Origin: Patescibacteria group bacterium
Lineage (GTDB): Bacteria; Patescibacteriota; Microgenomatia; Levybacterales; UBA12049
Direction of reading: 5' to 3'
Assembly (NCBI GenBank): GCA_035946335.1
Contig: DASYZL010000006.1
Span: forward strand, 1,772 to 65,771
Length of the DNA: 64,000 nt
Shown: positions 6,047 through 28,027 of the stretch, piece by piece
Layout: the number at the start of each line of letters is the position of its first letter
Position numbering within the stretch: position 1 is the stretch's first letter
Made by a program: the position numbers and the translations under genes
The notes under the pieces: generated by a model
What the model was told of the DNA's origin: nothing
Database searches by the model: none
The model's input: the letters and a program-made list of their open reading frames with translations, nothing else

Positions 6047-7136
6047 AAATTTTAGGAAACCAAGACAGTTACCTGGTTACTTTGCATTGTCATGGTATGC
6101 ATTTAAAGCTCAAACGCGAAATCCAGCAACGTTTGCCTTCGGGTTTATTTTTCCGATAGTCTTTATTAGTATCTTCGGGCTCATCGGAAATACACCACAA
6201 AAATTGACGATTGGCGTTCCAAAGACTTCATCGCAAAATAACCCGGTCATTGCTGCATTACAAAAACAATCGTACGTTATACTGAAGCGAAGTAATGAAA
6301 GTACCCTTGAGACGCAACTGAAACAGGGGAAGCTATCCGGTATTCTCGCAATTACAGAGATGCCAGCAAATCACTTTTCCGTTTCTCTCATAACCTCTTC
6401 TGCCAATCAGCAGGAAGCAGCGACGTTACAAGGTACGATGCAGGGAATTACAGATGCATTGAATCTACATCTTGCCGGCGTAACACATCCACCTGTCACA
6501 TTAACACAGCAGGAAGTATCAGGGAGACAAAATCGCTACATTGATTTTGCTCTTCCCGGACAAATCGGTTTTTCCCTGCTATCTACTGCAGTATTTGGAA
6601 CTGTTTTCGGATTGATTTATCTGAAAAAGGCACTCGTGTTAAAACGGATGTTCTCTACCCCCTCCCGTCCGCTGACAATTTTATTCGCACAGGGAACGAG
6701 TAGGCTCATCATGGCAATCATGCAAACATTATTGATTCTCCTGTTCGGCGTATTCCTCTTCCATTTCTACTTACCCCATGGACTGATAACATTTGCAGAA
6801 CTGATGCTCATTGCTGCATTAGGGTTAATTGCATTTTTGGGATTTGGGTATTTCATGGCAGGACTAGTGAATGACGAAAACTCCGCAAGTCCTCTTGTGA
6901 ACCTGGTAACGCTGCCTCAATTTTTGTTAAGCGGTACTTTTTTCTCAACAGATTCCCTTCCGAATTGGGTGCAACCGATTGCGAATAATTTACCGCTTTC
7001 GTATTTCAACGTCGCTGTACGGAAAATTACTACTGAGGGAGGAAACTTCGTTGATACAGTACCATATCTTATAGGTTTACTCCTTTGGGGCATAGTGATG
7101 TATGTACTTGCTGCATGGACGTTTAAGTGGGAATAA
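6039..7136 (+). CDS. ABC-2 family exporter permease (second copy)
   Basis: ATGA overlap with the upstream ATPase. N-terminal TM, a large extracytoplasmic loop, then 5 C-terminal TM helices (ABC-2 / YhgE-like topology). Confidence 0.7.
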   Translation: MSKNFRKPRQLPGYFALSWYAFKAQTRNPATFAFGFIFPIVFISIFGLIGNTPQKLTIGVPKTSSQNNPVIAALQKQSYVILKRSNESTLETQLKQGKLSGILAITEMPANHFSVSLITSSANQQEAATLQGTMQGITDALNLHLAGVTHPPVTLTQQEVSGRQNRYIDFALPGQIGFSLLSTAVFGTVFGLIYLKKALVLKRMFSTPSRPLTILFAQGTSRLIMAIMQTLLILLFGVFLFHFYLPHGLITFAELMLIAALGLIAFLGFGYFMAGLVNDENSASPLVNLVTLPQFLLSGTFFSTDSLPNWVQPIANNLPLSYFNVAVRKITTEGGNFVDTVPYLIGLLLWGIVMYVLAAWTFKWE

Positions 7137-7148
7137 TTTTCTTTCCCG

Positions 7149-8327
7149 TTACTTCTTCTGTTTGGATTCGCGCTCGGCAAGGAAGAAAATTGGTAGTGCG
7201 ATTAGTTGCAAAAGAACGGAAAAGAAAATAAGAGCTGGAATCGATTTATCATACAACACTCCTATTGTTGCACTTCCAAGAAACCAGAAAATACCATAAC
7301 TTGTATCAAATACGCCGAATCCAGTACTTCGCTTGTTTGCAGGAATAATAGGTACGAGTATCGATTTCAGTAGCGAATCTTGGGCGCCTATACCTGCTCC
7401 CCATAAAATCATCCCGAAAAGCGCAAAGAGCGAATTGCCGAGAAAAATAAATGGAGCAAATAAGGAAGAGATAAAAAATGCAATGAATACTGATGGAAAA
7501 CCTATTTTATCCAACAACTTACCAAACAATAACGCTGTTATGGCACCTGTTGCCATCGCAACTGCATAGTAGATAGGAATAATATGACTGGAAATAATAT
7601 GTGTTTTTTGGAAATGGAATGAAATAAGGGAAAAATCCACAAACCCGGCTGCTATGCATGCACCTGCTATCACGGAAAACCAGTATGCACTTGAAAACCC
7701 TTTTGTTCGCAATGGTATTGCTTCTTTTTTTTCTAAGTCTTGAGGACGCGGATACAAAATCCTGGCAAGAATAAGGGTAACAAAACACAATACTGCTGAA
7801 ATAAGAAGTACGGCAAACCCATACCTATAACCCCCTTTTAGATAAAGTACGAGAGCAACAATTAATGGTCCAATTGTTGCTCCTGTCTGATCAAGCGCCT
7901 CATTGAATCCAAATACCCACCCTCGTCCCATTTCTTTTGTTGTATATGCGAGCATGGTATCAATGTTTGGTTTTCTTATCGCCCTGCCTGTTCGCTCAAG
8001 TATCATTAACGCTGCTGCTGTTGGCCAGTTACCGGCAAGAGCGAGTGCCGGAACTGCAAACAAATTGATAAAGTAACCAAAAAGGGTCATTAACCAGTAT
8101 TTATGGGTTTTATCACCAATAAACCCTGTGATTGAACGTAATCCATATCCCATCAATTCACCAAACCCTGCAACGAATCCAACAATTGTTCCGCTGGCAC
8201 CCAGAGTCCCGAGAAATGCGCCCATGACGCTTCGCCCACCCTCATAGGTAAAATCTGCAAAGAGATTAACGATACCAATGATGAGAACAAAACGGAATGC
8301 CAAATTGGCAATATGCTTTTTCGTCAT
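7149..8327 (-). CDS. MFS transporter
   Basis: 12 predicted TM helices in two 6-helix bundles with a basic central loop. MFS-like loop motif G.A.R..N around helices 2-3. Confidence 0.75.
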   Translation of the reverse strand: MTKKHIANLAFRFVLIIGIVNLFADFTYEGGRSVMGAFLGTLGASGTIVGFVAGFGELMGYGLRSITGFIGDKTHKYWLMTLFGYFINLFAVPALALAGNWPTAAALMILERTGRAIRKPNIDTMLAYTTKEMGRGWVFGFNEALDQTGATIGPLIVALVLYLKGGYRYGFAVLLISAVLCFVTLILARILYPRPQDLEKKEAIPLRTKGFSSAYWFSVIAGACIAAGFVDFSLISFHFQKTHIISSHIIPIYYAVAMATGAITALLFGKLLDKIGFPSVFIAFFISSLFAPFIFLGNSLFALFGMILWGAGIGAQDSLLKSILVPIIPANKRSTGFGVFDTSYGIFWFLGSATIGVLYDKSIPALIFFSVLLQLIALPIFFLAERESKQKK

Positions 8328-8434
8328 AGTAATAAAAGTATACCACTAAAATAAAAATCAATGAGAAAGGTTCTTAATAAGCAACAGGGCCCAAGATCAG
8401 GAAGCGCAATAAAATATGATATACTCAAGTACGT

Positions 8435-8839
8435 ATGAAGCTGCAGCACGCACTCTCTATGCAAGGTATATTTGTATTGGTATTTCTGGTTATTGAATAC
8501 TTCCTAGGTATGTTTACGAATTTATTTATATCGTTTCCGAACAATACATATGGAGGCAAAGCCTGGGTATTTGCGTGGCGCCAAATTCCGCTAGCACTCC
8601 ATATCATCGTAGGATTTTCTTTGTTGGTTGGCGCAATTGTCTTAGTAGTCAGAGCAATCAGACAAAAAAATAAAAACTGGATACTTGCATCTGTTATTGG
8701 TTTTATTGCAATTCTTTCTGCTGCACTTGCAGGCGCATTGTTCATTTCTTTACAAAGGAGCATTTATTCGTTCATTATGGCTATAAGTTTTGTAGTTGCT
8801 CTATTTGCCTACGGATGGGGAGTATACAAAGAACGATAA
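8435..8839 (+). CDS. Small integral membrane protein (4 TM)
   Basis: 134-aa ORF with four clear hydrophobic helices. Preferred over the overlapping antisense ORF 8425..8763, which lacks any features. Confidence 0.45.
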   Translation: MKLQHALSMQGIFVLVFLVIEYFLGMFTNLFISFPNNTYGGKAWVFAWRQIPLALHIIVGFSLLVGAIVLVVRAIRQKNKNWILASVIGFIAILSAALAGALFISLQRSIYSFIMAISFVVALFAYGWGVYKER

Positions 8840-9250
8840 AAACAATTCCCTTTCATTATCACCATCAACAATCTACTCATAGATAAAACTATTATCTTTT
8901 TATCACAAGTGTGCTAGGGAATATTGGAGATTTCCCAATAAACATCACTTTACCGGCTGATTTGCTCTGGCTATAGTATGTAGCACCATACAACACTGAG
9001 AAAAAAATGAGCAAGAACAGAACAAACAAAACCTTACGCATCTGAAACAATGTGGAAATGTTTTTTGCTTTTTCTGATTCCTCTTCTCATGAATTTTTGT
9101 AAAGAATAAAATATCTCAAGGTACGTAGTATTTGTTTCTTTCATAATGTCAATATGATACTCATTCATACATTTTTCGTGCAAGAAATAGTACCAAGCAT
9201 ATCCCCACATAGTTCACCCCCTTTCCTTTTGTGTGTTTTATTAGTATTAA

Positions 9251-9280
9251 AAAACCAGCCATCTGGCTGGTTTTCTGGTT
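9251..9280. terminator. Perfect 11-bp stem / 3-nt loop hairpin (AAAACCAGCCA-TCT-TGGCTGGTTTT) followed by a T-rich tract
   Basis: Read directly from the sequence at 9251-9275. Sits in a 690-bp ORF-free gap, so the transcript it terminates is unassigned (possible sRNA or small-ORF terminator). Confidence 0.35.
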
Positions 9281-9512
9281 TCTTGGTAATCGTTTTTATT
9301 TACTCTACACATAGATATAACTTCATATGAGAAACCAGTAGATTTTCCGGTCCGTTAACAAGAGAGATCAATGAAGAAGGTTTGAAAGTCAATGTAACCA
9401 TACTGAATTGTATTATTATCACAGTGTTTCATTTCTGTCAATGATTTTTTTCACCCAGAACAGCAAAGTAACCCATCCTTGAAAAAATAGTCAAAATTTT
9501 TATACTTTTTTA

Positions 9513-9521
9513 TGGTATAAT
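9513..9521 (+). promoter_or_regulatory. Extended -10 promoter element (TGGTATAAT) for a leaderless transcript of the 9529 gene
   Basis: TGnTATAAT at 9513-9521. The ATG of the downstream ORF at 9529 is only ~7 nt after the -10, implying a leaderless mRNA. Confidence 0.35.
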
Positions 9522-9528
9522 CACATTA

Positions 9529-9957
9529 ATGCATAAAACATTTTATGCAAGCGGATTTTTATACCATTTACCTTCTGAACAAATTCTCTTGCAACAAGAT
9601 ACTTCTTTATACAATCATGCATCTCATTGGTTTTTATTCTGCAGAAAATATACTAAAAATGAGAATCCAGAGGAAGTTTTCCAAAAAATAATCTTCGACT
9701 TCCTTGGTATAGAAGCGGTTTCAGTCCAACCAGTGTACTCATATGAGAATGAACATGCGAATCAATGTATTTTTTATTCTGAATTGGAAGCATTACAAAA
9801 TTTTTCTTCAAAAAATGGCCTTACTTTTAAATGGTTTACATTCAAAGATGTTGAAAAACTAAAAATTATGGAACAAACGAAACACGATATCGTTGTCGGA
9901 CAACGGGTAATTAATGCAGCATCAAGAAAACGGAGAGGTGAACATACATTTCTCTAA
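9529..9957 (+). CDS. Hypothetical protein
   Basis: 142-aa ORF with its own promoter-like sequence. No recognisable domain. Confidence 0.4.
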   Translation: MHKTFYASGFLYHLPSEQILLQQDTSLYNHASHWFLFCRKYTKNENPEEVFQKIIFDFLGIEAVSVQPVYSYENEHANQCIFYSELEALQNFSSKNGLTFKWFTFKDVEKLKIMEQTKHDIVVGQRVINAASRKRRGEHTFL

Positions 9958-9984
9958 ATTACCTATCTCTTCAGAGATATGACA

Positions 9985-11199
9985 TTAGTCTACAAACGTG
10001 AGAGCGGTTCCTCTTTTACCAGCCCGCCCGGTTCTTCCTATTCTGTGAATATAATCCTCGTAAGAAGCAGGAGCATCGTAATTAATAACATGAGTAACAT
10101 TCTCAATATCAAGGCCTCGTGAAACAACGTCTGTTGCTAACAGCACTTGAATCTCATTACTTTTAAATTGTTGCAAAGCCCGTTGTCTCTGGTTTTGTGT
10201 TTTATTTCCATGAATCGCAGCTGCATGAAATCCCCGGGAAATAAGTTCGTTTGCTAGTTTCTGTACTCCCCATTTCGTTCTTCCAAAAATGAGCACCTTG
10301 TCAAACCCTGTTTGTATCAAAAGATCGTGAAGCACGTTTATTTTTGTTTTGCCACCAGTTACCTTGATGATATCCTGATCAATAGTAGCCGATGTATCCT
10401 GCTGCTTCACAGAAATTGTTATGGGATCTGTTACAAAACTTCTTAAGATTTCCTGTGTTTTTGTATCAACGGTTGCAGAAAAGAATAATGATTGTCGAGT
10501 TTTAGGAAGAAGTGAAATGAGAAATTTGATATCTTTAATAAATCCGATATCTACCATTCTATCTACCTCATCAAGAACAACATTTTGAAAAAGCCCTACA
10601 TTGAGATCTTTTCGAATGAGTAAATCTTTTAATCTTCCTGGGGTACCTATGACAAAATGCGGCTTATGGTGCAGTGCATATGTTTGCTTTTTGATATTTG
10701 ATCCTCCTACAAGCGCAGCAGCTTCCAAATCTGTTCCTTTTGCAAAGACGCGAAATTCGTCCGTAATCTGCAGCGCAAGTTCACGGGTTGGAGTAACAAT
10801 CAATACTCGTTGATTCCTGTCAAGATATGCTTTGTTAATCAGGGCAATAAGAAAGGCAGCGGTTTTACCGGTTCCTGTATTTGCAATACCGATAATATCC
10901 CTACCTGCTAAAATCTCAGGAATTGCTTTTTCCTGTATTGCTGTAGGGATTGTATATCCGTGTTCCTGGATATTGCGCTTGAGCTTGTCAACTATTGGGT
11001 AAGCTATAAAACTGCCGTTCGCAGCTTCATCCAACAGGGAAAGATTAGCATTTTCCCTCTCTTCTGCTTTTTTAACAAAAAGCTTGGTATCAAGCTTATC
11101 TGCGTGTTTAGCAAATCCTCGTTGGAATTTTTTCCTGGAGGAATAAAAACCACCTCCGTGTTTACCACGGTAAGCATTGTTTTGTTTCGGTTTATACAT
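9985..11199 (-). CDS. DEAD-box ATP-dependent RNA helicase
   Basis: Motif I ANTGTGKTAAF, Ia PTRELA, II VLDEVDRM, III SAT, VI HRIGRTGRAG. Carries a basic N-terminal extension. Confidence 0.9.
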   Translation of the reverse strand: MYKPKQNNAYRGKHGGGFYSSRKKFQRGFAKHADKLDTKLFVKKAEERENANLSLLDEAANGSFIAYPIVDKLKRNIQEHGYTIPTAIQEKAIPEILAGRDIIGIANTGTGKTAAFLIALINKAYLDRNQRVLIVTPTRELALQITDEFRVFAKGTDLEAAALVGGSNIKKQTYALHHKPHFVIGTPGRLKDLLIRKDLNVGLFQNVVLDEVDRMVDIGFIKDIKFLISLLPKTRQSLFFSATVDTKTQEILRSFVTDPITISVKQQDTSATIDQDIIKVTGGKTKINVLHDLLIQTGFDKVLIFGRTKWGVQKLANELISRGFHAAAIHGNKTQNQRQRALQQFKSNEIQVLLATDVVSRGLDIENVTHVINYDAPASYEDYIHRIGRTGRAGKRGTALTFVD

Positions 11200-11203
11200 A
11201 ATA

Positions 11204-11458
11204 TTATCTTGCTTGAGGAATAGCTTCTTTTACGACGATTGAACGACCATTGATTTGCGAACCATTCAGTTTATTCATGGCTTCTTTAGCAATCTCAGGT
11301 GTTTCCATTTCAACAAATCCAAATCCTTTCCCTTGACCTGTATATCGATCAACAATAACCTTCGCAGAAAGTACTTTGCCAATTGTTGCAAAAAGTTCTT
11401 CAAGTTGTCCATTCGTTGTCCCATAATCGAGACTTCCTATAAATAATTTATTTGTCAT
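11204..11458 (-). CDS. RRM-type RNA-binding protein
   Basis: RNP-2 KLFIGSL and RNP-1 KGFGFVEM motifs. 84 aa. Strong SD (AAGGAGGAG) upstream. Located 5 nt downstream of the DEAD-box helicase on the same strand. Confidence 0.85.
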   Translation of the reverse strand: MTNKLFIGSLDYGTTNGQLEELFATIGKVLSAKVIVDRYTGQGKGFGFVEMETPEIAKEAMNKLNGSQINGRSIVVKEAIPQAR

Positions 11459-11701
11459 TTTTATCTCCTCCTTTCCCTTAAAATATAGTATTGATATTAC
11501 GCTCGTAGGTCTGCTTAGGTAATGAAGTTATTTTTATTTCGAAGAAGATACGTGGAAAAAATAGTATTAAGGTATCTTTTATCTTTTCTAAAAACTAAAT
11601 CAAATATAAGCAGATATACCAGCGTACTATCTGCAATCTACGTTATCATAGCATATCTCTATCCGTAAGTCAATAATGCTATAGGTCTATTTTGTGCTGC
11701 A

Positions 11702-12163
11702 TCAATCAATATGACCATCTAAATTGCAGTCGATTTCATTGATTAGCCAACCATATTTTGCTTTATGTAAGCGCACAGGAATATGATAATTTCCACCAGG
11801 AAAAACTGTCTCGACAATAACAGTTGCTGAAGAACTACTATCCAGATATGGTTTAAATATGTTTATTTTTTGTGGTATTCCCTCATTGCATAGCAACGTA
11901 TCTCCTGGAGTTGCCTTGAGCGTCTTTACAAACGTGCTGTCAAAAAAATCACCTGGATTTACAATACAGTGATCCAGTAATGAACCGTTTTGTAATCTCG
12001 AAGTTTTCATGCATTGAAAATATGAAGTATATACCGCGCGCATGAGTTCCTCGGGAGAAGAATATGCTCTTGAAACCACAGGTACTGTTTCTCTGAGATA
12101 CACCACGAGCATAGTAATAACGAACAGCAGTACACAAACAATGCTTACCGTGGTAACTCTCAT
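11702..12163 (-). CDS. Hypothetical membrane-anchored protein
   Basis: N-terminal TM helix. Starts 4 nt after the stop of the large secreted enzyme gene, so probably co-transcribed with it. Confidence 0.4.
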   Translation of the reverse strand: MRVTTVSIVCVLLFVITMLVVYLRETVPVVSRAYSSPEELMRAVYTSYFQCMKTSRLQNGSLLDHCIVNPGDFFDSTFVKTLKATPGDTLLCNEGIPQKINIFKPYLDSSSSATVIVETVFPGGNYHIPVRLHKAKYGWLINEIDCNLDGHID

Positions 12164-12167
12164 ACGC

Positions 12168-15092
12168 TTACGGACAGACCCGGGCTTGTAACGTCACGGG
12201 AGATAATGGCTGTTGACTCATGTCAAGTGAACCGGTAAAAGGGTCTGCTTGTCCGTCAAGTGAGGTCAATTGCGGCAATCCAAATATATTTTCTGTCAGT
12301 TTTTCAGCTGATGGAAAACTATACATTGTGTGATCAATAAATCCGCGCTTGGCAAAGGGTGAAATAATAATTGCTGGCACTCGAAAACCATACATAATCT
12401 GGCCGTTTGAACCCTTCGGTGGAGCAACATGATCATAAAATCCACCAAAATCGTCCCATGTTAAAATAATAACTGTATTTGCCCAGAGCGCAGGATTACT
12501 CATGACCGCATTGATTTGTTGAACTGTCCAGTTTTCTCCCGTACAAATATTTGCCGGAGGGTGATCACTGACATTTGACGGCTCTACCAGCCAAGAAACA
12601 GCAGGAAGATTACCTGAAGATGCATCAACTGCAAACTGGGAATAGTTTACTACGTGTTGTTGCCATTGTGTTGTTTCCCGTATGTGTTTGATCGCGTCAT
12701 ATATTGACCAAATGTATCCGGATGTTCCCTGATCAGGTGCGTAGTACTTCCATGATAGAGAATGGGCATTGAGGAGGTCGCCAACCGTTTGAAAATTATC
12801 AAAACAGGGAAACACGTTTTGGATCGTTCCATTTGCATGACGCTCTTCTACGGTAGCATTTGCAGGTGAATCACATCCCCAGATACCTGCACTCGTAGGA
12901 TTTGCATCAACATCGTTATCCTGTCCAGCAATAGTAAAAAAGTGATTGGCAAAACTAGGTCCCAGAATTGTTGAAAAGAAATTATCATCCAGCGTAAAAT
13001 TTTGCGCATATTTCCAGTAATTCGATATATCTGATTGCAGAAGTTGAGAATCCGCTTCATCAGTTCCATTTTGCATGGCACCTCTAATTTGTGAGAATTT
13101 ATCCATCCTACCGTTATCATATGCCAGATGAGCTGAATTTGGAGAATGATCGATATCATTAAGTAAAGCTACAGGTTGATGATTCAGAGGATGTGACAGT
13201 CCGTTCGCGTCTTTATACGTTGTTGTTCCATTTGCCCCAGGAAAGGTGCCAAACATACTATCAAATGTCCGATTTTCTTTGTCCATAATAATGATGTGCT
13301 GTATTTTCCCTGCAACTGGAGTATTTGTGGGTGAAGGAAAAAAAGTTGGAGTAGGATTACCTGTAGGAGTTGGGGTGATAGAAGGAACAGTACCGTTACC
13401 CTGCTGCACGCTTATTTCCCGAAGGAAAAGATTATAATCAATGCCATCAACAACGCCGTCGTCGTTAATATCGGCTCCTGGAGATTGCGCTGTAGGAGGC
13501 TTTGTGCATGTTGGGGTTGTTTGCAAATCACCATAGCAACTCACAATTGCATTATAATCCAACAGGTCCAGTTGATCGTCATTGTCAATATCTCCGTTTA
13601 CCAGAGAAAGGGAAGGAAGGGTAATCGTTTGACCGGAAGTAATAGCGATGGTTCCGGGTTCCTGTTTTGAAAGAAATCCATCCATTTTCACTGTCACCGT
13701 GTATTGTCCTGAAGAAAGATTTGAAACGGAAAGAGAACCCTGGAAGTTTCCAGCAGACTGATTATACGAAACAGTCCCCTGCACTGGCATAGATGTACCT
13801 GCAGCAAGAAGGGTAACGATCACTGACCGTTGTTGATGGACAGGATTGGTATTCCCGCCACTATTTGCACTGACGCTATCACCACAATTTCCTAAACCAT
13901 GAGGACAAAGAGTGAGAGAAAGAGTTGTGGATCCTGTTGGAACAGGTGTCCCTGAGGAAGGAGTACTTGATGTGGGCGTTGGTGTTCCTGGGGGTGCTGA
14001 GGAAACCGTTGGCATTGGCGTACCTGCTGTCCCGGCAGACCCAAAAATTGTTGTATAAGCCTGTTTGGCAAGCGCTTCATTGTCAGCACCTATTTGATTG
14101 GTAGTCCCTGTCCAATTACTTGGTTCAAAATAGCTCAAACCTGCTGTATGAGATTGTAAGACAAAATTTGTCATTGCAGTGTTGTATGCCGGATAATCAC
14201 ATCGCCCACCCCACTCGTTGATTATCATACTTGCATGATGCGCATGGAGAAATGTTGCCTCCTGAGGTTTCGTGGTAGCTAACTCGCTTAAAGCCGTGGC
14301 ATTCGGTTCACCGCATTGTCCAGAATATAAATGCCTGTCAATAATGATATTTGTTTGAGTAAAGGGAAAAGGATTATATGGGTAGTTAGGATACTCAACC
14401 TTTAAAACATTAGGATTTCCTTTTTGCAACGCATCAAGCCACATCATATCATCGGCTTGAGGGTTTGGTTCTCCTGCATGGACACCTTCATTTCGAACAT
14501 CAAAAAATACCGCAGGATCATTCGCAAAAAGTGATGCCATACTCTGTAATGCTTGCGCGCCAACAGTCCCTTCATTGGTATTGATTCTGTTGGACATTTG
14601 ATCTTTGTTTAATTCTACGTATAGTCCCCGGGACTCAAGCGCTTTGACATAGGCTTTCACAAAATCCTGATAGTTCATATTTGCTGTAGGTACTGATGGA
14701 TTCGTCGTCCAATAGTCAGGGTGAAAACCGACACGAATCATATTAATTGGTACTTTTTGGAGGATTGCATCGACATAACTCATGTCTGTTGTATCTGTTT
14801 CATATTGTCCACTCGTGAATCCTGCTTTTTTCCCTTCTGCCCCTAATAAATAGACTTCACAACCAGTGGCATCAACCAATAAACCATTTTGGTCCAAATG
14901 CAGTTGTGCAAATGTGTAGGTTCCATCGGAGTTTTTTACTCTTCCTGTATGATTACAGTTTGTCATGGCTGCATATTGTTCTGTTTGCTGCTGTTGCAGG
15001 GAAAAAAGAACTGTTAGAGGTATAGTTACAGCAATAAAAAACGTTGCTAAACCGATATATTTTTTTCCACGCATAAAATGTCTCCTAAACAA
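12168..15092 (-). CDS. Large secreted multidomain protein: N-terminal GH5-like (clan GH-A) glycoside hydrolase, Ser/Thr/Pro linkers, dockerin-like Ca-binding repeats, C-terminal phosphoesterase (PLC/AcpA family)
   Basis: Signal/TM at the N-terminus. GH-A-like catalytic pattern (R..H; NEG; H.Y; INEWGG). Two dockerin-type loops [13 protein letters not shown] and [13 protein letters not shown]. The C-terminal [14 protein letters not shown] matches the phosphoesterase family motif ENRSFDHYFG. Confidence 0.7.
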
Positions 15093-15530
15093 AGGGCAAT
15101 AGATACTGCTTTAAGAGTAAACCAACAAAATAGAAAAAACAAGCAATCAAGTTATCATTATGATACATATCCATTGCTCAATAAATATTACTACTAAAAG
15201 ATATATTAGCTGTAGTATTTTAATAACCTGCCTCCTTTATACAACGGACTGATGAGTTTATATACTTTTCTCAAGCTACAATAATGTGCTCGAGTATAAC
15301 GGTAAAGTATCTATCATTGAAATAGTTGAACAAAAGGATTAAGACTATTTATAATTTATATACGTACGCCTTGACGATGTTCTATTTTCATTGTTTGCAC
15401 TAAGCTTTCTTTTGAGGTAAATCTAATCCAGGTCAAGTCATTTTTGACAAATTTTCGAGGCTAGATTGAAGTAAAATTGTACCTGGCATTCTTGGACGTT
15501 GTAAATAGACAACTGATAAAAGTTATATTA

Positions 15531-16128
15531 TTAAAATGATCCAGTCTTAACTTCCCCTGCGAACTTATAATTGGCGACTATGACTCCATTTGGTGCAATT
15601 TTTCCTTCAACCATTTGAAGCGCAGATGGAACTGTTCCTTCTGCAAATAAACGCTTACCTCTTCCAAGCGTTAGTGGATATATTTTAAGCCAAAGCTCAT
15701 CTACCAAGTTGTTTTTCAAAAGAGTCTGGATAAGATTTCCGCTCCCATGTACTTGTAACTCGGGGCCATCTTTTGCTTTGAGTTTTTTAATCTGATCAAC
15801 AACATTATCTTTTACTATAATTGTCTTTTCCCAATCGTATGCATGGTCAGAACTTGAGACCACATATTTTGTTGCCTTATTAATACTTTCGCCTTCTTCT
15901 GGGTGATCAGGCCAAATAAGATTTAAAAATCTCATAAGTCTTTCTTCCAAGAAGCAAATCGAAAGGATGACCCATTTGTTCTGTCATGACCTTACCCATA
16001 AAATCATCAAAATAAGGGAATTGCCAACCACCGTATTTGAAGTCTCCACTTATATCTTCCTTTGGTCCACCAGGTGCCTGCATAACACCGTCTAAAGTGA
16101 TAAAAGAGAGAACAATAATTTTTCTCAT
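15531..16128 (-). pseudogene. Frameshifted dihydrofolate-reductase-family (RibD C-terminal domain) gene
   Basis: Two overlapping ORFs (15907..16128 N-terminal part MRKIIVLSFITLDGVMQAPGG...; 15531..15950 C-terminal part ...LQVHGSGNLIQTLL...LFAEG) together form one RibD_C/DHFR-like protein. The split implies a frameshift near 15907-15950 (or a sequencing error). Confidence 0.55.
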
Positions 16129-16229
16129 AAAAATTATTTTAATATTAAAGAGCTTATGAAAGCTAGTGTCTGAATTTTTATTTTTTTCTGCCTATTGCGT
16201 TTTAAACATTTATATGGAATAATCATCTC

Positions 16230-16652
16230 ATGGCAAAGATGAATCCAGTTGTGCATTTTGAAATGCCGGCTAAAGATAAAAAAAGAGTATCTGAATTTTA
16301 TTCTAAAGTTTTTGGTTGGCAGATGCATCAACTCGGTGCCAAGATGGGAAATTACCTTCTAGCTCAAACTACAGACACTGATGAAAATATGATGCCTAAA
16401 ACACCAGGAGCAATCAATGGTGGTTTTTTTGATTATCAAAAAAAGAAAGGCTTTAACATCCCTCACTTAGTAATATCTGTTGATAATTTAGAAGAAGCAA
16501 TGAAAAAAGTAGAGGAAGCTGGAGGCAAAATACTTGGTGGTGTCTCTGGTCCTGGAAAAATCGATGATATTCCTGGAGTTGGTCGCTACGTTTCTTTTGT
16601 AGACTCAGAAGGTAATCACGTTGGCATGCTTCAACCAGTTCCGAGAAAATAA
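16230..16652 (+). CDS. VOC (glyoxalase/bleomycin-resistance) family protein
   Basis: N-terminus NPVVHFEMPAKD...FYSKVFGWQ is typical of VOC-family proteins. 140 aa. Confidence 0.65.
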   Translation: MAKMNPVVHFEMPAKDKKRVSEFYSKVFGWQMHQLGAKMGNYLLAQTTDTDENMMPKTPGAINGGFFDYQKKKGFNIPHLVISVDNLEEAMKKVEEAGGKILGGVSGPGKIDDIPGVGRYVSFVDSEGNHVGMLQPVPRK

Positions 16653-26249: not shown

Positions 26250-28016
26250 ATGGCATTTTTTGATTACAATTTGAAGGAAAAATTACAAGAATATAAATTC
26301 GGTGCGTATTTACGACGTTCTTCGGAAGACAATGAAGATAAGCAAGTACGAAGTATTGAGGGACAACAGCAAGACCTTCAAGAAGTCAGCACAAAACTGC
26401 GTTTATCAAAACTGAAAAAATATGATCCCGAAAGTAAGTCTGCATTCAAAATCGGTAGACCAATTTTTAGTCAAATTATACAAGATATTGAAAATGGAGT
26501 TATTGACGCATTACTTGTTTGGCATGCAAATCGTATTTCACGAAATTATGGTGATGGTGGAAAATTTGTGCAGTTAATGTCTGAGGGAAAATTAAAAATT
26601 GTTTTAACACCTTTTGGAGTTTTTGAAAATACTCCGAGAGACATGGAATATCTCATGAATGAATTTACTCGTGCGACTAGGGACAGTGGAGATAAATCAG
26701 ACGCAGTAAAACGAGGAAACCGTATAAAATTAAAAGCAGGTTATATTCCTAGTGGCAGACTATCAGAGGGCTACGATCATGTTAAAAATGAGCGAGGTGA
26801 ATCAGTAAACGGCACTAATAGTAATTTCACATTACTAAGGAAAACAATTGAGTTGGTGTTAAATGGAACGCATACACCAATGGAGGCATTGGATGTATTA
26901 AATAATGAATGGAAATATCAGACAAGAAAAACTAAAAGATTAGGAGGGAAATCACTCGCAAAAAGCACATTTTATCGTCTGTTATCGAATCCAAAATCGT
27001 ATGGTCTCATTATTAGCGCAGAAGGAGAATTTACCGCTGAGTTTCCCCCACTAATGACAAAAGAAGAATATGAGAAAATACAAATACTTCTTGGTAAGAA
27101 AGCAGGCAGAAGAAGAACTCCAAAAACGTGGGCATATACAGGTGAAATTACTTGCGACAGCTGCAGTGGATTTATAACAATGGAAGATAAATGGCAAGTT
27201 ATTTGTCCTGTTTGTAAAACAAAATTCCATAAATCCTCGGATAGATTTGCTTGTATAAATTGTCATACTCCAATAGAGGAAATGAGGAATCCAAAACTTC
27301 TTCATTATACTTGGTTGCATTGCACACGGCAGAAACTTGCAGATGGAACCAAATGCAGGCAACCGTACCTCGCTGTTGATAATTTCGATGGACAAGTCCA
27401 AAGCCTCATTGAAAAATTTACTATTCCAGAAGGATTTGCCAAATGGGCAATTAAATGGTTAGAAAAACTAAACGATCAAGAAGTACAACAAAGAACAGTA
27501 ATAAATACTAATCTCCAAAAATTTCATAATGATGTTCAAAAACAGATTGACGATCTGTTGGACTTACGATTAAAAGGACTTATCGACGATGCAGAATATC
27601 AAAAGAAGAAAGAAACGCTACTTCTGGAAAAGAAGGAGGTAAACCAAAAATTACAAGTTACTGATAAGCGAGCAGATGAATGGTTAGACCTATGTGAGAA
27701 TACGTTTAATTTCGCTACTTATGCGCATATATGGTTTGCCAAAGGAACGACTAATCAAAAACGTGCAATACTTCATGCACTTGGATCGAACCTAATATTA
27801 AAAGATAAAGTTTTATTGATACAACAAGCTAGACCATTTATGCTACTTGCTGGAACGAAAGAAAAAGTAGGAATTAAATTGCAAACAATCGAACCTAACG
27901 ATCAGCTTGATGTAGTAGCCCAAAAGCTCGGTTCTGAGGCTTCCAGTCTTGACTTGCTGCCGAGCAGGGATTCGAACCCCAATAAACAGATCCAGATTCT
28001 GTTGTCCTACCATTAG
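26250..28016 (+). CDS. Large serine recombinase (resolvase/invertase-type catalytic domain + recombinase domain + zinc ribbon + coiled coil)
   Basis: N-terminal YLRRSSEDNEDKQVRSIEGQQQ (catalytic Ser region). Cys cluster CDSC...CPVC...CINCH (zinc-ribbon recombinase domain). Coiled-coil C-terminal region. The 3' end overlaps the tRNA-Gln on the opposite strand. Confidence 0.85.
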   Translation: MAFFDYNLKEKLQEYKFGAYLRRSSEDNEDKQVRSIEGQQQDLQEVSTKLRLSKLKKYDPESKSAFKIGRPIFSQIIQDIENGVIDALLVWHANRISRNYGDGGKFVQLMSEGKLKIVLTPFGVFENTPRDMEYLMNEFTRATRDSGDKSDAVKRGNRIKLKAGYIPSGRLSEGYDHVKNERGESVNGTNSNFTLLRKTIELVLNGTHTPMEALDVLNNEWKYQTRKTKRLGGKSLAKSTFYRLLSNPKSYGLIISAEGEFTAEFPPLMTKEEYEKIQILLGKKAGRRRTPKTWAYTGEITCDSCSGFITMEDKWQVICPVCKTKFHKSSDRFACINCHTPIEEMRNPKLLHYTWLHCTRQKLADGTKCRQPYLAVDNFDGQVQSLIEKFTIPEGFAKWAIKWLEKLNDQEVQQRTVINTNLQKFHNDVQKQIDDLLDLRLKGLIDDAEYQKKKETLLLEKKEVNQKLQVTDKRADEWLDLCENTFNFATYAHIWFAKGTTNQKRAILHALGSNLILKDKVLLIQQARPFMLLAGTKEKVGIKLQTIEPNDQLDVVAQKLGSEASSLDLLPSRDSNPNKQIQILLSYH

Positions 28017-28027
28017 ACGACTCGGCA
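27957..28027 (-). tRNA. tRNA-Gln (anticodon CTG)
   Basis: Reverse complement reads TGCCGAG-TC-GTCTAATGGTAGGAC-A-ACAGAATCTGGATCTGT-TTAT-TGGGGTTCGAATCCCTG-CTCGGCA. It has a 7-bp acceptor stem, anticodon loop AUCUGGA (CUG) and a GGTTCGAATCC T-loop. CCA is not encoded. Confidence 0.7.

Follow-up and report, generated by a model that had tools for sequence, protein, structure and literature searches.

We analysed a 64,000-nucleotide stretch of a Patescibacteria group bacterium contig (accession # DASYZL010000006.1, positions 1,772 to 65,771; hereafter the window), and in it a minus-strand gene that joins a glycosidase domain, a dockerin-bearing module and a phosphoesterase domain in one polypeptide. 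The open reading frame (ORF) runs uninterrupted from 12168 to 15092 and encodes 974 amino acids when begun at the TTG at 15092. An AGGAG Shine-Dalgarno sequence is located 7 nt 5' of an in-frame ATG at 15074, which is probably the true start; the coding sequence then spans 12168..15074, with its stop codon at 12168-12170, and the product has 968 amino acids. This product is identical to P0001, a database protein annotated as 'MAG TPA: alkaline phosphatase family protein [Patescibacteria group bacterium]' and encoded on a 239,830-bp contig. Residue numbers throughout follow the 974-residue translation. A preliminary description had reported a 974-residue ORF at 12168-15092 that combines three modules; we found this ORF, on the minus strand, and the motifs quoted for it all lie where they had been placed: RNEG at residues 200-203, HLY at 254-256, INEWGG at 291-296, the two calcium-loop motifs at 501-513 and 541-553, and the start motif of the phosphoesterase at 606-619. 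The protein had also been called giant; at 968 residues it is large, but not giant.

All parts of the protein are encoded on the minus strand. Residues 7-42 (14967..15074) form an N-terminal export leader, read from the sequence as MRGKK, a 19-residue hydrophobic core and a Gln-rich region ending in YAA; this would be a Sec signal peptide or a signal anchor. A like leader, a transmembrane (TM) segment followed by QQQQxTQQHAA, is present in the relatives P0004, P0006, P0009, and P0014. The leader is followed by a divergent GH5 domain (residues 43-352; 14037..14966), a Pro/Thr/Ser/Gly-rich linker 1 (residues 353-387; 13932..14036; GC content 0.59, GC content at third codon positions (GC3) 0.31), a beta-sandwich that resembles the X modules of cellulosomal proteins (residues 388-499; 13596..13931), a dockerin-like domain (residues 500-566; 13395..13595), a Pro/Thr-rich linker 2 (residues 567-594; 13311..13394), and a PF04185 phosphoesterase of the AcpA/phospholipase C (PLC) superfamily (residues 595-974; 12171..13310). 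Both linkers were delimited by a composition scan.

Proteins that carry the same middle module often begin with a hydrophobic helix followed by a Gln-rich stretch that runs to HAA or YAA, e.g. FFSQQQQKTQQHAA. This leader was seen at the N-termini of P0001, P0002, P0004, P0006, P0009, P0014, P0020, P0152, and P0169, and a simple pattern picks it up in 18 of 136 representatives. Such leaders may constitute a lineage-specific export or processing signal.

The preliminary description had raised the suspicion of an assembly chimera. In an independent assembly, made by Logan from the reads of SRR12347820, one contig of 10,148 bp (L001) corresponds to positions 6132..16279 of the window without a gap (99.98% identity; 2 mismatches, no indel) and carries the identical 968-residue gene together with the same neighbours. 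The reading frame is unbroken for 2.9 kb. GC3 is 0.32 in the leader and GH5 domain, 0.35 in the middle module, and 0.32 in the phosphoesterase, as compared to 0.32 +/- 0.04 in 13 other genes of the window; it is uniform across the parts (0.31-0.35) except in the 28 codons of linker 2 (0.11). The GC content climbs to 0.43 in the region of the gene, the window being AT-rich (0.38). Because GC3 matches that of the other genes, the raised GC content reflects amino acid composition. The phosphoesterase follows directly on the Pro/Thr linker; no trace is left of a leader such as its stand-alone relatives have, and this excludes a simple read-through of two genes. Comparison with P0026, in which the phosphoesterase follows its own leader, likewise revealed no remnant of a second signal peptide in linker 2. 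On the strength of the gapless contig and the homogeneous GC3, the assembly chimera was rejected. The gene is a genuine single gene and a true domain fusion; an assembly artefact is very unlikely.

The N-terminal head had been described as a GH5-like glycosidase, an assignment that held on three grounds: the Pfam match, the conserved catalytic residues, and the fold. PF00150 (Cellulase/GH5) scored 36.9 bits over residues 73-307, its cut-off being 23.5 (E=3.8e-9). In an alignment of seven sequences, R120, N201-E202, H254, Y256, and E293 are invariant; candidate catalytic residues are N201/E202 (acid/base), H254 and Y256, and E293 as the nucleophile. The strand-3 His and strand-8 Trp of the GH5 signature received no assignment in this domain. 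A profile of the family matched GH5 endoglucanases in the PDB (best match 5ihs, E=6e-6; Cel5A types near 1e-3), and the NE pair and the nucleophilic Glu aligned to those of 5ihs and 1lf1. The AlphaFold2 (AF2) model of the domain has a pLDDT of 71 and a pTM of 0.78; its last third is poor, with pLDDT below 50 across much of domain residues 224-315. In a Foldseek search with this model, all 50 of the 50 PDB matches listed were GH5 enzymes (best match 8fc0, E=1.9e-11; TM-scores 0.55-0.64). Endoglucanases, endoglycoceramidases, and lichenases score about equally among these fold matches, which do not discriminate between specificities. From its conserved residues the domain is probably active.

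The GH5 subfamily is rare, with six relatives among 5.8 billion proteins: P0288, P0289, P0290, P0291, P0002, and P0003. P0288 and P0289 are 48% and 46% identical to the domain, respectively, and P0003 is a paralogue encoded on the same contig as the gene itself. At locus L075 (1-5790) of one MAG, three tandem copies of this rare GH5 subfamily, 28-35% identical to the domain, lie upstream of a match to the middle module; this arrangement suggests a local family expansion.

The preliminary description had noted dockerin-type calcium-loop repeats. These are real and form one half of a larger, two-part unit of about 180 residues that resembles the X-module-dockerin (XDoc) dyads of cellulosomes. 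The X-module-like part opens with a conserved motif, is all-beta in the AF2 model (module residues 1-114), has weak matches to CarboxypepD_reg and DUF3869, and aligns with the X module of the CipA and ScaA XDoc. In the dockerin-like part, two 12-residue F-hand Ca2+ loops have Asp or Asn at positions 1, 3, 5, 9, and 12; each is followed by a helix, and a Cys-containing insert lies between them. The AF2 model places helices at module residues 123-131 and 163-177. The Pfam family Dockerin_1 was matched by 14 of 21 close relatives of the module, and at E<=1e-5 by 48 of 86 more distant ones (best E=4e-16). When a profile of the module was compared with solved structures, it aligned with 2b59_B, the CipA X module with its type II dockerin, at E=2e-5, and this alignment spans both halves of the unit. 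The AF2 model of the module (pLDDT 85.6, pTM 0.83) shows a beta-sandwich and then three helices. When this model was compared with the PDB by Foldseek, every one of the ten top matches was an XDoc chain from a type II cohesin-dockerin complex (E 2e-7 to 1.4e-5; TM-scores 0.49-0.59 over about 178 columns). The profile match to 2b59_B, the AF2 model, and the XDoc fold matches uphold the dockerin call despite a Pfam score below the cut-off in this protein.

Two pairs of Cys are conserved in the module. In three of 21 sequences both Cys of CPHGLGNC are missing together, and the pair that brackets the insert between the Ca2+ loops is invariant in the module alignment A1 (21 sequences); both pairs are therefore likely to form disulfides, which would be unusual for dockerins.

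For the C-terminal head, the claim of a phosphoesterase of the AcpA/PLC family was borne out by a PF04185 match to residues 597-940 that covers the whole model (positions 1-356 of 356) and scores 208.7 bits, the cut-off being 23 (E=1.9e-61). The best solved relative is Francisella AcpA (2d1g, E=1.5e-23), followed by PLC structures with E-values of 1e-19 to 1e-13; E43, N44, and S175 of AcpA align with E606, N607, and S713. Motifs described for the family are ENRSFDxxxG, TxPNR, DExxGxxDHV, and GxRVPxxxxxP (PMC7835795). Motifs of the ENRSFDxxxG, DExxGxxDHV, and GxRVPxxxxxP types are present here, and TxPNR is replaced by SFANH, which contains S713. The active site of the plant phospholipase NPC4 comprises E23, N24, D76, H79, T158, H264, D299, and E300, for which a catalytic scheme has been given (PMC9837106). 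By correspondence with the NPC4 motifs, the predicted active site consists of E606, N607, D646, H649, S713 as nucleophile, H844, D880, and D881. These residues are kept in 114-121 of 121 aligned relatives, and the nucleophile is Ser in 117. The domain failed the NCBIfam cut-offs of both TIGR03397 (acid_phos_Burk, the AcpA type; 144 bits against 362.75) and TIGR03396 (PC_PLC; 140.8 bits against 580.25), and a Pfam search found no DUF756 domain (PF05506) in the protein. The phosphoesterase is thus AcpA-like in its predicted Ser nucleophile and core-only architecture, yet belongs by its sequence to a separate subfamily.

This subfamily is large, with more than 7000 matches, most of them to stand-alone secreted proteins of about 430-460 residues. 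The stand-alone relatives come from Chloroflexota, Ktedonobacteria, Herpetosiphonaceae, and Dormibacterota and are 58-67% identical to the domain; the closest relatives are P0025 and P0026 (72% identity). P0026 (666 residues, from an uncultured bacterium) is laid out as leader, phosphoesterase, linker, and module, so that the phosphoesterase is already paired with the same tag elsewhere, in the usual order. The identity of 58-67% to proteins from soil Chloroflexota, Ktedonobacteria, and Dormibacterota is far above what is expected between phyla, and suggests an old inter-phylum transfer of the phosphoesterase. A recent horizontal acquisition of this half of the protein, to which the raised GC content of 0.43 and the identity to Chloroflexota proteins had pointed, was considered and rejected: GC3 equals the genome mean in every large part, and any transfer must therefore be old.

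Residues 388-566 are 50-60% identical to a segment of about 20 proteins found in the first round of searching, which have quite different catalytic domains; the segment has one motif at its start and another at its end. A hidden Markov model (HMM) of the module, searched against 1.84 billion cluster representatives, gave 5479 matches at E<=1e-3, of which 990 reach E<=1e-30; almost all of them span the whole module. Of 164 proteins, 148 end with the module, eight have it near the N-terminus, and six, the present protein included, have it between two large regions. Partners of the module in 86 representatives include GH5, GH16, GH18, GH26, GH27, GH28, GH39, GH99, CBM4_9, subtilase, VWA, and two phosphoesterases. 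In GTDB genomes, it is found in Candidatus Levybacteria/Levyibacteriota, Microgenomates, Saccharimonadales, and metagenome-assembled genomes (MAGs) labelled 'Patescibacteria group', with up to seven loci per genome. Judging from these architectures, Microgenomates/Levybacteria-type bacteria of the candidate phyla radiation (CPR) have a large, presumably secreted, hydrolase repertoire that shares the XDoc-like module as its tag. The pairing of GH5 with PF04185, in contrast to the module, was found in the present protein alone among the 5.8 billion proteins.

The module was also present in MAGs with implausible labels, such as 'uncultured Gammaproteobacteria bacterium', 'Candidatus Acidiferrales', 'Lysobacterales', 'Methylomirabilota', and 'Limnocylindrales' (L004-L075). 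Several of these resemble Levybacteria in carrying the module more than once and in the size of their contigs or chromosomes, only 1.1-1.6 Mb (e.g. OZ246394.1).

All ORFs of 77 related loci were clustered, leaving out those that bear the module. The second most widespread family of neighbours is a protein of about 200 residues with an N-terminal hydrophobic helix in 24 of 25 copies. PF00963 (Cohesin) was above its cut-off in all 12 members tested (best E=3.5e-9), and 24 of the 25 PDB matches of the family profile are cohesins, including the type II cohesin of SdbA. Genes for this TM-helix cohesin occur in 24 of the 77 loci, from MAGs of the Levybacteria/Microgenomates type (e.g. L050 6609-7212, L013 6328-6922, L071 2599-3223, and L054 7898-8483). 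In about 22 cases the cohesin gene is on the same strand as a module gene, either 2-114 nt downstream or 4-23 nt upstream of it. From this arrangement, the pair looks like a conserved operon for the membrane anchor of a cohesin-dockerin system. The module genes that adjoin cohesins mostly encode proteins of about 410 residues, composed of a leader, a cohesin-like domain (hhalign probability of 96.4% to the cohesin family), a Pro/Thr linker, and XDoc; examples are L024 1569-2922, L050 5316-6540, and L013 5064-6300. The cohesin HMM matched 40 of 134 module ORFs in the related loci. Their layout is that of a scaffoldin in miniature, which makes these proteins one-cohesin adaptors. The related lineages therefore have a cohesin-dockerin system that comprises a membrane anchor, adaptors, and numerous tagged enzymes. 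The HMM of the cohesin adaptors also gave a match to the ORF studied here (E=2.4e-7, bias 27), which was discarded because it falls on low-complexity linker and leader sequence.

The preliminary description had held that a dockerin implies a cohesin partner or surface display. For this there is indirect support: genomes with the same module encode membrane-anchored cohesins, usually right next to module genes. None was detected in the searched parts of the window. In the literature, a Microgenomates MAG has been found to express cohesin and dockerin proteins (bioRxiv 10.1101/2021.08.21.457207), and a dockerin-domain protein is essential in a cultivated Saccharibacterium, where it is proposed to target host glycans (PMC10633639). 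In our literature search, neither the XDoc dyad nor the cohesin operon turned up as described before.

A small membrane-anchored ORF had been reported 4 nt downstream of the gene, and it is indeed there: an ORF of 153 residues with an N-terminal TM helix (11702..12163, minus strand). The junction reads TAA-GCGT-ATG, and the ORF has no Shine-Dalgarno sequence. No terminator-like site was found in or beside the 4-nt gap, and a scan for promoters and terminators gave nothing above background; one weak terminator-like match lies inside the large ORF (13753-13740). The 153-residue ORF is probably co-transcribed with the modular gene. It had no match in Pfam, NCBIfam, or the PDB; neither the 78 loci nor the metagenome scan yielded a relative, and it has no counterpart beside P0026. 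Its position resembles that of the cohesin genes beside module genes in related loci. As a cohesin partner, the ORF was tried and rejected (hmmsearch E=0.84, hhalign probability 1.2%); from its sequence it looks helix-then-sheet rather than all-beta.

The reading that we favour, and consider moderately probable, is that of an exported two-headed enzyme, docked on the cell surface by its XDoc-like module, that would cleave beta-glycans and phosphate esters side by side. An N-terminal Sec-type leader would carry the protein across the membrane. The XDoc-like module, a beta-sandwich with a two-loop Ca2+-binding dockerin, lies between the heads and is flanked by the Pro/Thr linkers; its dockerin would fold with Ca2+ and bind a cohesin at the surface, a step suggested by the fold and the related genomes for which the chances appear to us about evenly balanced. 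The GH5 head would be a retaining beta-glycanase that cleaves its glycan by double displacement, E293 being the nucleophile and E202 the acid/base, and the phosphoesterase head, of the core-only type, would cleave phosphate esters via a phosphorylated Ser713. The net effect would be a surface-bound harvest of sugars and phosphate, or of lipid head-group products, from extracellular or host-derived material, for a cell with minimal biosynthesis.

Several observations weigh against this reading. The last third of the GH5 model is of low confidence, and the domain has weak sequence similarity to solved GH5 enzymes. The score of the protein itself against Dockerin_1 (18.5-19.6 bits, residues 500-556) is below the cut-off of 22.9. 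The adjacency of cohesin genes is no direct proof that XDoc of enzymes binds cohesins, because the adjoining module genes mostly encode adaptors. Within the 64-kb window, no cohesin was found by Pfam among 42 ORFs, whose matches are to housekeeping, transport, and mobile-element families, nor by the cohesin HMMs from the related loci among all 682 ORFs of at least 40 residues. Since both NCBIfam cut-offs were failed, the sequence does not separate monoesterase from phospholipase C chemistry. Finally, because the fusion is a singleton, it does not demonstrate selection for coupling the two activities.

The lack of a cohesin in the searched parts of the window leads to a different account of the module, which we regard as rather unlikely: it binds no cohesin here, and the protein either leaves the cell or stays attached through an N-terminal signal anchor that is not cleaved. 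In that case the module would be a Ca2+-stabilised spacer, a binder of glycans or cell walls, or a lineage-specific C-terminal sorting tag turned internal. Sorting tags are found at the extreme C-terminus, as is the module in 90% of proteins, and weak matches to Por_Secre_tail in four members of the module family and to CarboxypepD_reg in nine are in keeping with such a role. Dockerin-like modules are also reportedly widespread in organisms without cohesins. Against this account, cohesin genes are closely linked to module genes in related genomes, the top matches of the module by fold and by profile are precisely to XDoc dyads that bind cohesins, and both Ca2+ loops are canonical.

An offensive role, as the preliminary description had proposed, is, in our view, unlikely. 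According to this explanation, the protein would serve an epibiotic or parasitic CPR cell as a tool. Its phosphoesterase would be a PLC whose targets are the membrane lipids of the host or else polymers of the lipoteichoic, teichoic, or phosphoglycan kind, with the GH5 domain opening the host's glycan layer or, alternatively, cleaving glycolipid head groups; the membrane ORF downstream could be a self-protection factor. PF04185 does include true PLC toxins, as reflected in the matches to PLC structures, and glycolipid-cutting endoglycoceramidases hold ranks 7, 9, and 10 among the GH5 fold matches. Cultivated Patescibacteria are epibionts, one with the essential dockerin protein mentioned above (PMC10633639), and the small membrane protein is translationally coupled to the gene. 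However, the phosphoesterase lacks DUF756 domains and a PC-PLC-level score, and it has the Ser nucleophile of AcpA, not the Thr of PLCs. The endoglycoceramidase matches are no better than the endoglucanase matches, and the small ORF has no relatives and is absent beside P0026. The closest relatives of the phosphoesterase are stand-alone secreted enzymes of free-living soil Chloroflexota (58-67% identity), and phosphate scavenging, as in the surface-docked reading that we favour, therefore fits better than an attack on a host.

A more elaborate form of docking, to which we assign a low probability, is a minimal cellulosome-like display. It would consist of a TM-anchored single cohesin, the one-cohesin-XDoc adaptors, and dozens of XDoc-tagged hydrolases per genome, with the present protein as a two-headed cargo directed at a glycan-phosphate polymer of a host or neighbour. 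The polymer may be a teichoic or lipoteichoic acid, a phosphoglycan, or a glycophospholipid at the contact surface, and the orphan ORF downstream may be a divergent anchor or a protection partner. The coupling of both heads to one composite substrate is attractive, yet it is unsupported because the fusion is a singleton.

We think it most unlikely that one of the two heads is non-catalytic, the GH5 domain serving as a glycan-binding domain that targets the phosphoesterase. Such a role would agree with the loss of the insertion of about 40 residues found in the paralogues, visible as deletions relative to P0002, P0003, P0290, and P0291, and with the stretch of low pLDDT and the weak similarity to solved GH5 enzymes noted above. 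However, the residues of the catalytic signature (R, NE, HxY, and E) are all invariant, and the shortened form is common to P0288 and P0289 (46-48% identity). Because these two proteins share it, the shortened GH5 domain represents a conserved subfamily and not decay.

Hardly any credence can be given to an artefact in which separate GH5-XDoc and phosphoesterase genes were joined via their repetitive Pro/Thr linkers, or in which a sequencing error removed a stop codon: the fusion is known from one database entry, the linkers are of low complexity, and the same reads may underlie both assemblies, but across 10 kb the two assemblies differ at 2 positions and by no indel, the frame is continuous for 2.9 kb with homogeneous GC3 and no leader before the phosphoesterase, and the module is also internal between two large regions in P0005, P0006, P0013, and P0200.

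The remainder of the window contains housekeeping genes (tRNA synthetases, SecDF, RecJ, and a DEAD-box helicase), ABC transporters, and cell-envelope enzymes. At 15531-16128 on the minus strand, a RibD_C/dihydrofolate-reductase-like gene is split into overlapping ORFs of 73 and 139 residues in different frames; the independent Logan contig has the same split, which is therefore a real frameshift or a pseudogene and not an assembly error. The segment 21440-28027 begins with an OLD-family nuclease (AAA_15 plus TOPRIM, 686 residues), continues with two ORFs without family matches, and ends with a serine recombinase of 588 residues; at its 3' end, the recombinase gene runs into one for tRNA-Gln, which lies on the other strand at 27956-28027. 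Around 20-24 kb of the window, GC content is low (0.30-0.35). The segment may be a mobile or defence element integrated at the tRNA.

CPR bacteria, or Patescibacteria, comprise a large share of bacterial diversity. They lack the majority of biosynthetic pathways and presumably depend on other cells for their living; little is understood of the way in which they retain and employ their extracellular enzymes. Here, a phosphate-ester hydrolase has been recruited into the same dockerin-tagged repertoire as glycosidases, and fused to one of them. The XDoc tag, the membrane-anchored cohesins, and the adaptors together provide a concrete, testable model of enzyme display on the surface of CPR cells. 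The cohesin operon may outweigh the single gene in importance, and extends what had been a one-line metaproteomic remark in the literature. If both heads act on one substrate, the protein would indicate what these cells eat.

Each part of the protein can be set beside a characterised counterpart. The GH5 domain shares its predicted (beta/alpha)8 fold and the NE/HxY/E signature with GH5 endo-beta-1,4-glucanases, such as Cel5A from Bacillus agaradhaerens (1a3h) and the metagenomic enzyme 8fc0; however, it is only about 15% identical to these enzymes and is a member of a rare subfamily.

The middle module has the same arrangement, an Ig-like beta-sandwich followed by a dockerin with two F-hands, as the XDoc of CipA from Clostridium thermocellum and of ScaA from Acetivibrio cellulolyticus (PDB 2b59, 4u3s, 4wi0, and 5g5d). 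The partners of these XDoc are the type II cohesins found in anchoring proteins, SdbA among them, and the cohesins of the related genomes match the SdbA type. In contrast to the CipA and ScaA dyads, to which it is 14-18% identical, the module has its own N-terminal motif and a Cys-bracketed insert, and it is borne by enzymes, not by scaffoldins alone. The presumed anchor also differs: a single cohesin with an N-terminal TM helix would take the place of an SLH-domain protein.

For the phosphoesterase, AcpA from Francisella tularensis (2d1g), the prototype of the superfamily, is the best solved match and shares the core-only architecture and the Ser nucleophile, whereas the sequence similarity is low and the domain is fused here to other modules. 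The PLCs of PF04185 (PlcH and PlcN from P. aeruginosa, Plc from M. tuberculosis, and NPC4 from Arabidopsis, PDB 8hav) belong to the same Pfam family; they have ENRxFD, DDxxGxxDHV, and GxRVPxxxxxP in common with the domain, and a similar two-step mechanism via a phospho-enzyme would apply (PMC9837106, PMC7835795). Unlike them, the domain has SFANH instead of TxPNR, Ser instead of Thr as the nucleophile, and neither DUF756 nor the C-terminal domain of NPC. P0026 and the stand-alone phosphoesterases of the Chloroflexota type are much closer, with 72% and 58-67% identity across the whole domain, respectively, and P0026 shares the XDoc-like module. In these proteins, the phosphoesterase directly follows its own leader and there is no GH5 domain, whereas in the present protein it is C-terminal, after the module.

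As a whole, the layout of a catalytic domain, a dockerin, and a second catalytic domain is known from cellulosomal proteins, such as Xyn10Z (CE1-CBM6-dockerin-GH10) and Xyn10Y from C. thermocellum. These are likewise single secreted polypeptides in which two catalytic domains are split by linkers and a dockerin that plugs into a cohesin. The protein described here differs in that its second head is a PF04185 phosphoesterase and not a carbohydrate esterase or glycosidase, its dockerin is part of an XDoc-like dyad, and its host is a CPR bacterium with a small genome and not a cellulolytic Firmicute. All of the parts come from known families; what is new is that GH5 is paired with PF04185, that a phosphoesterase is the cargo bearing a dockerin, and that a tag of the XDoc type is used in a CPR bacterium.

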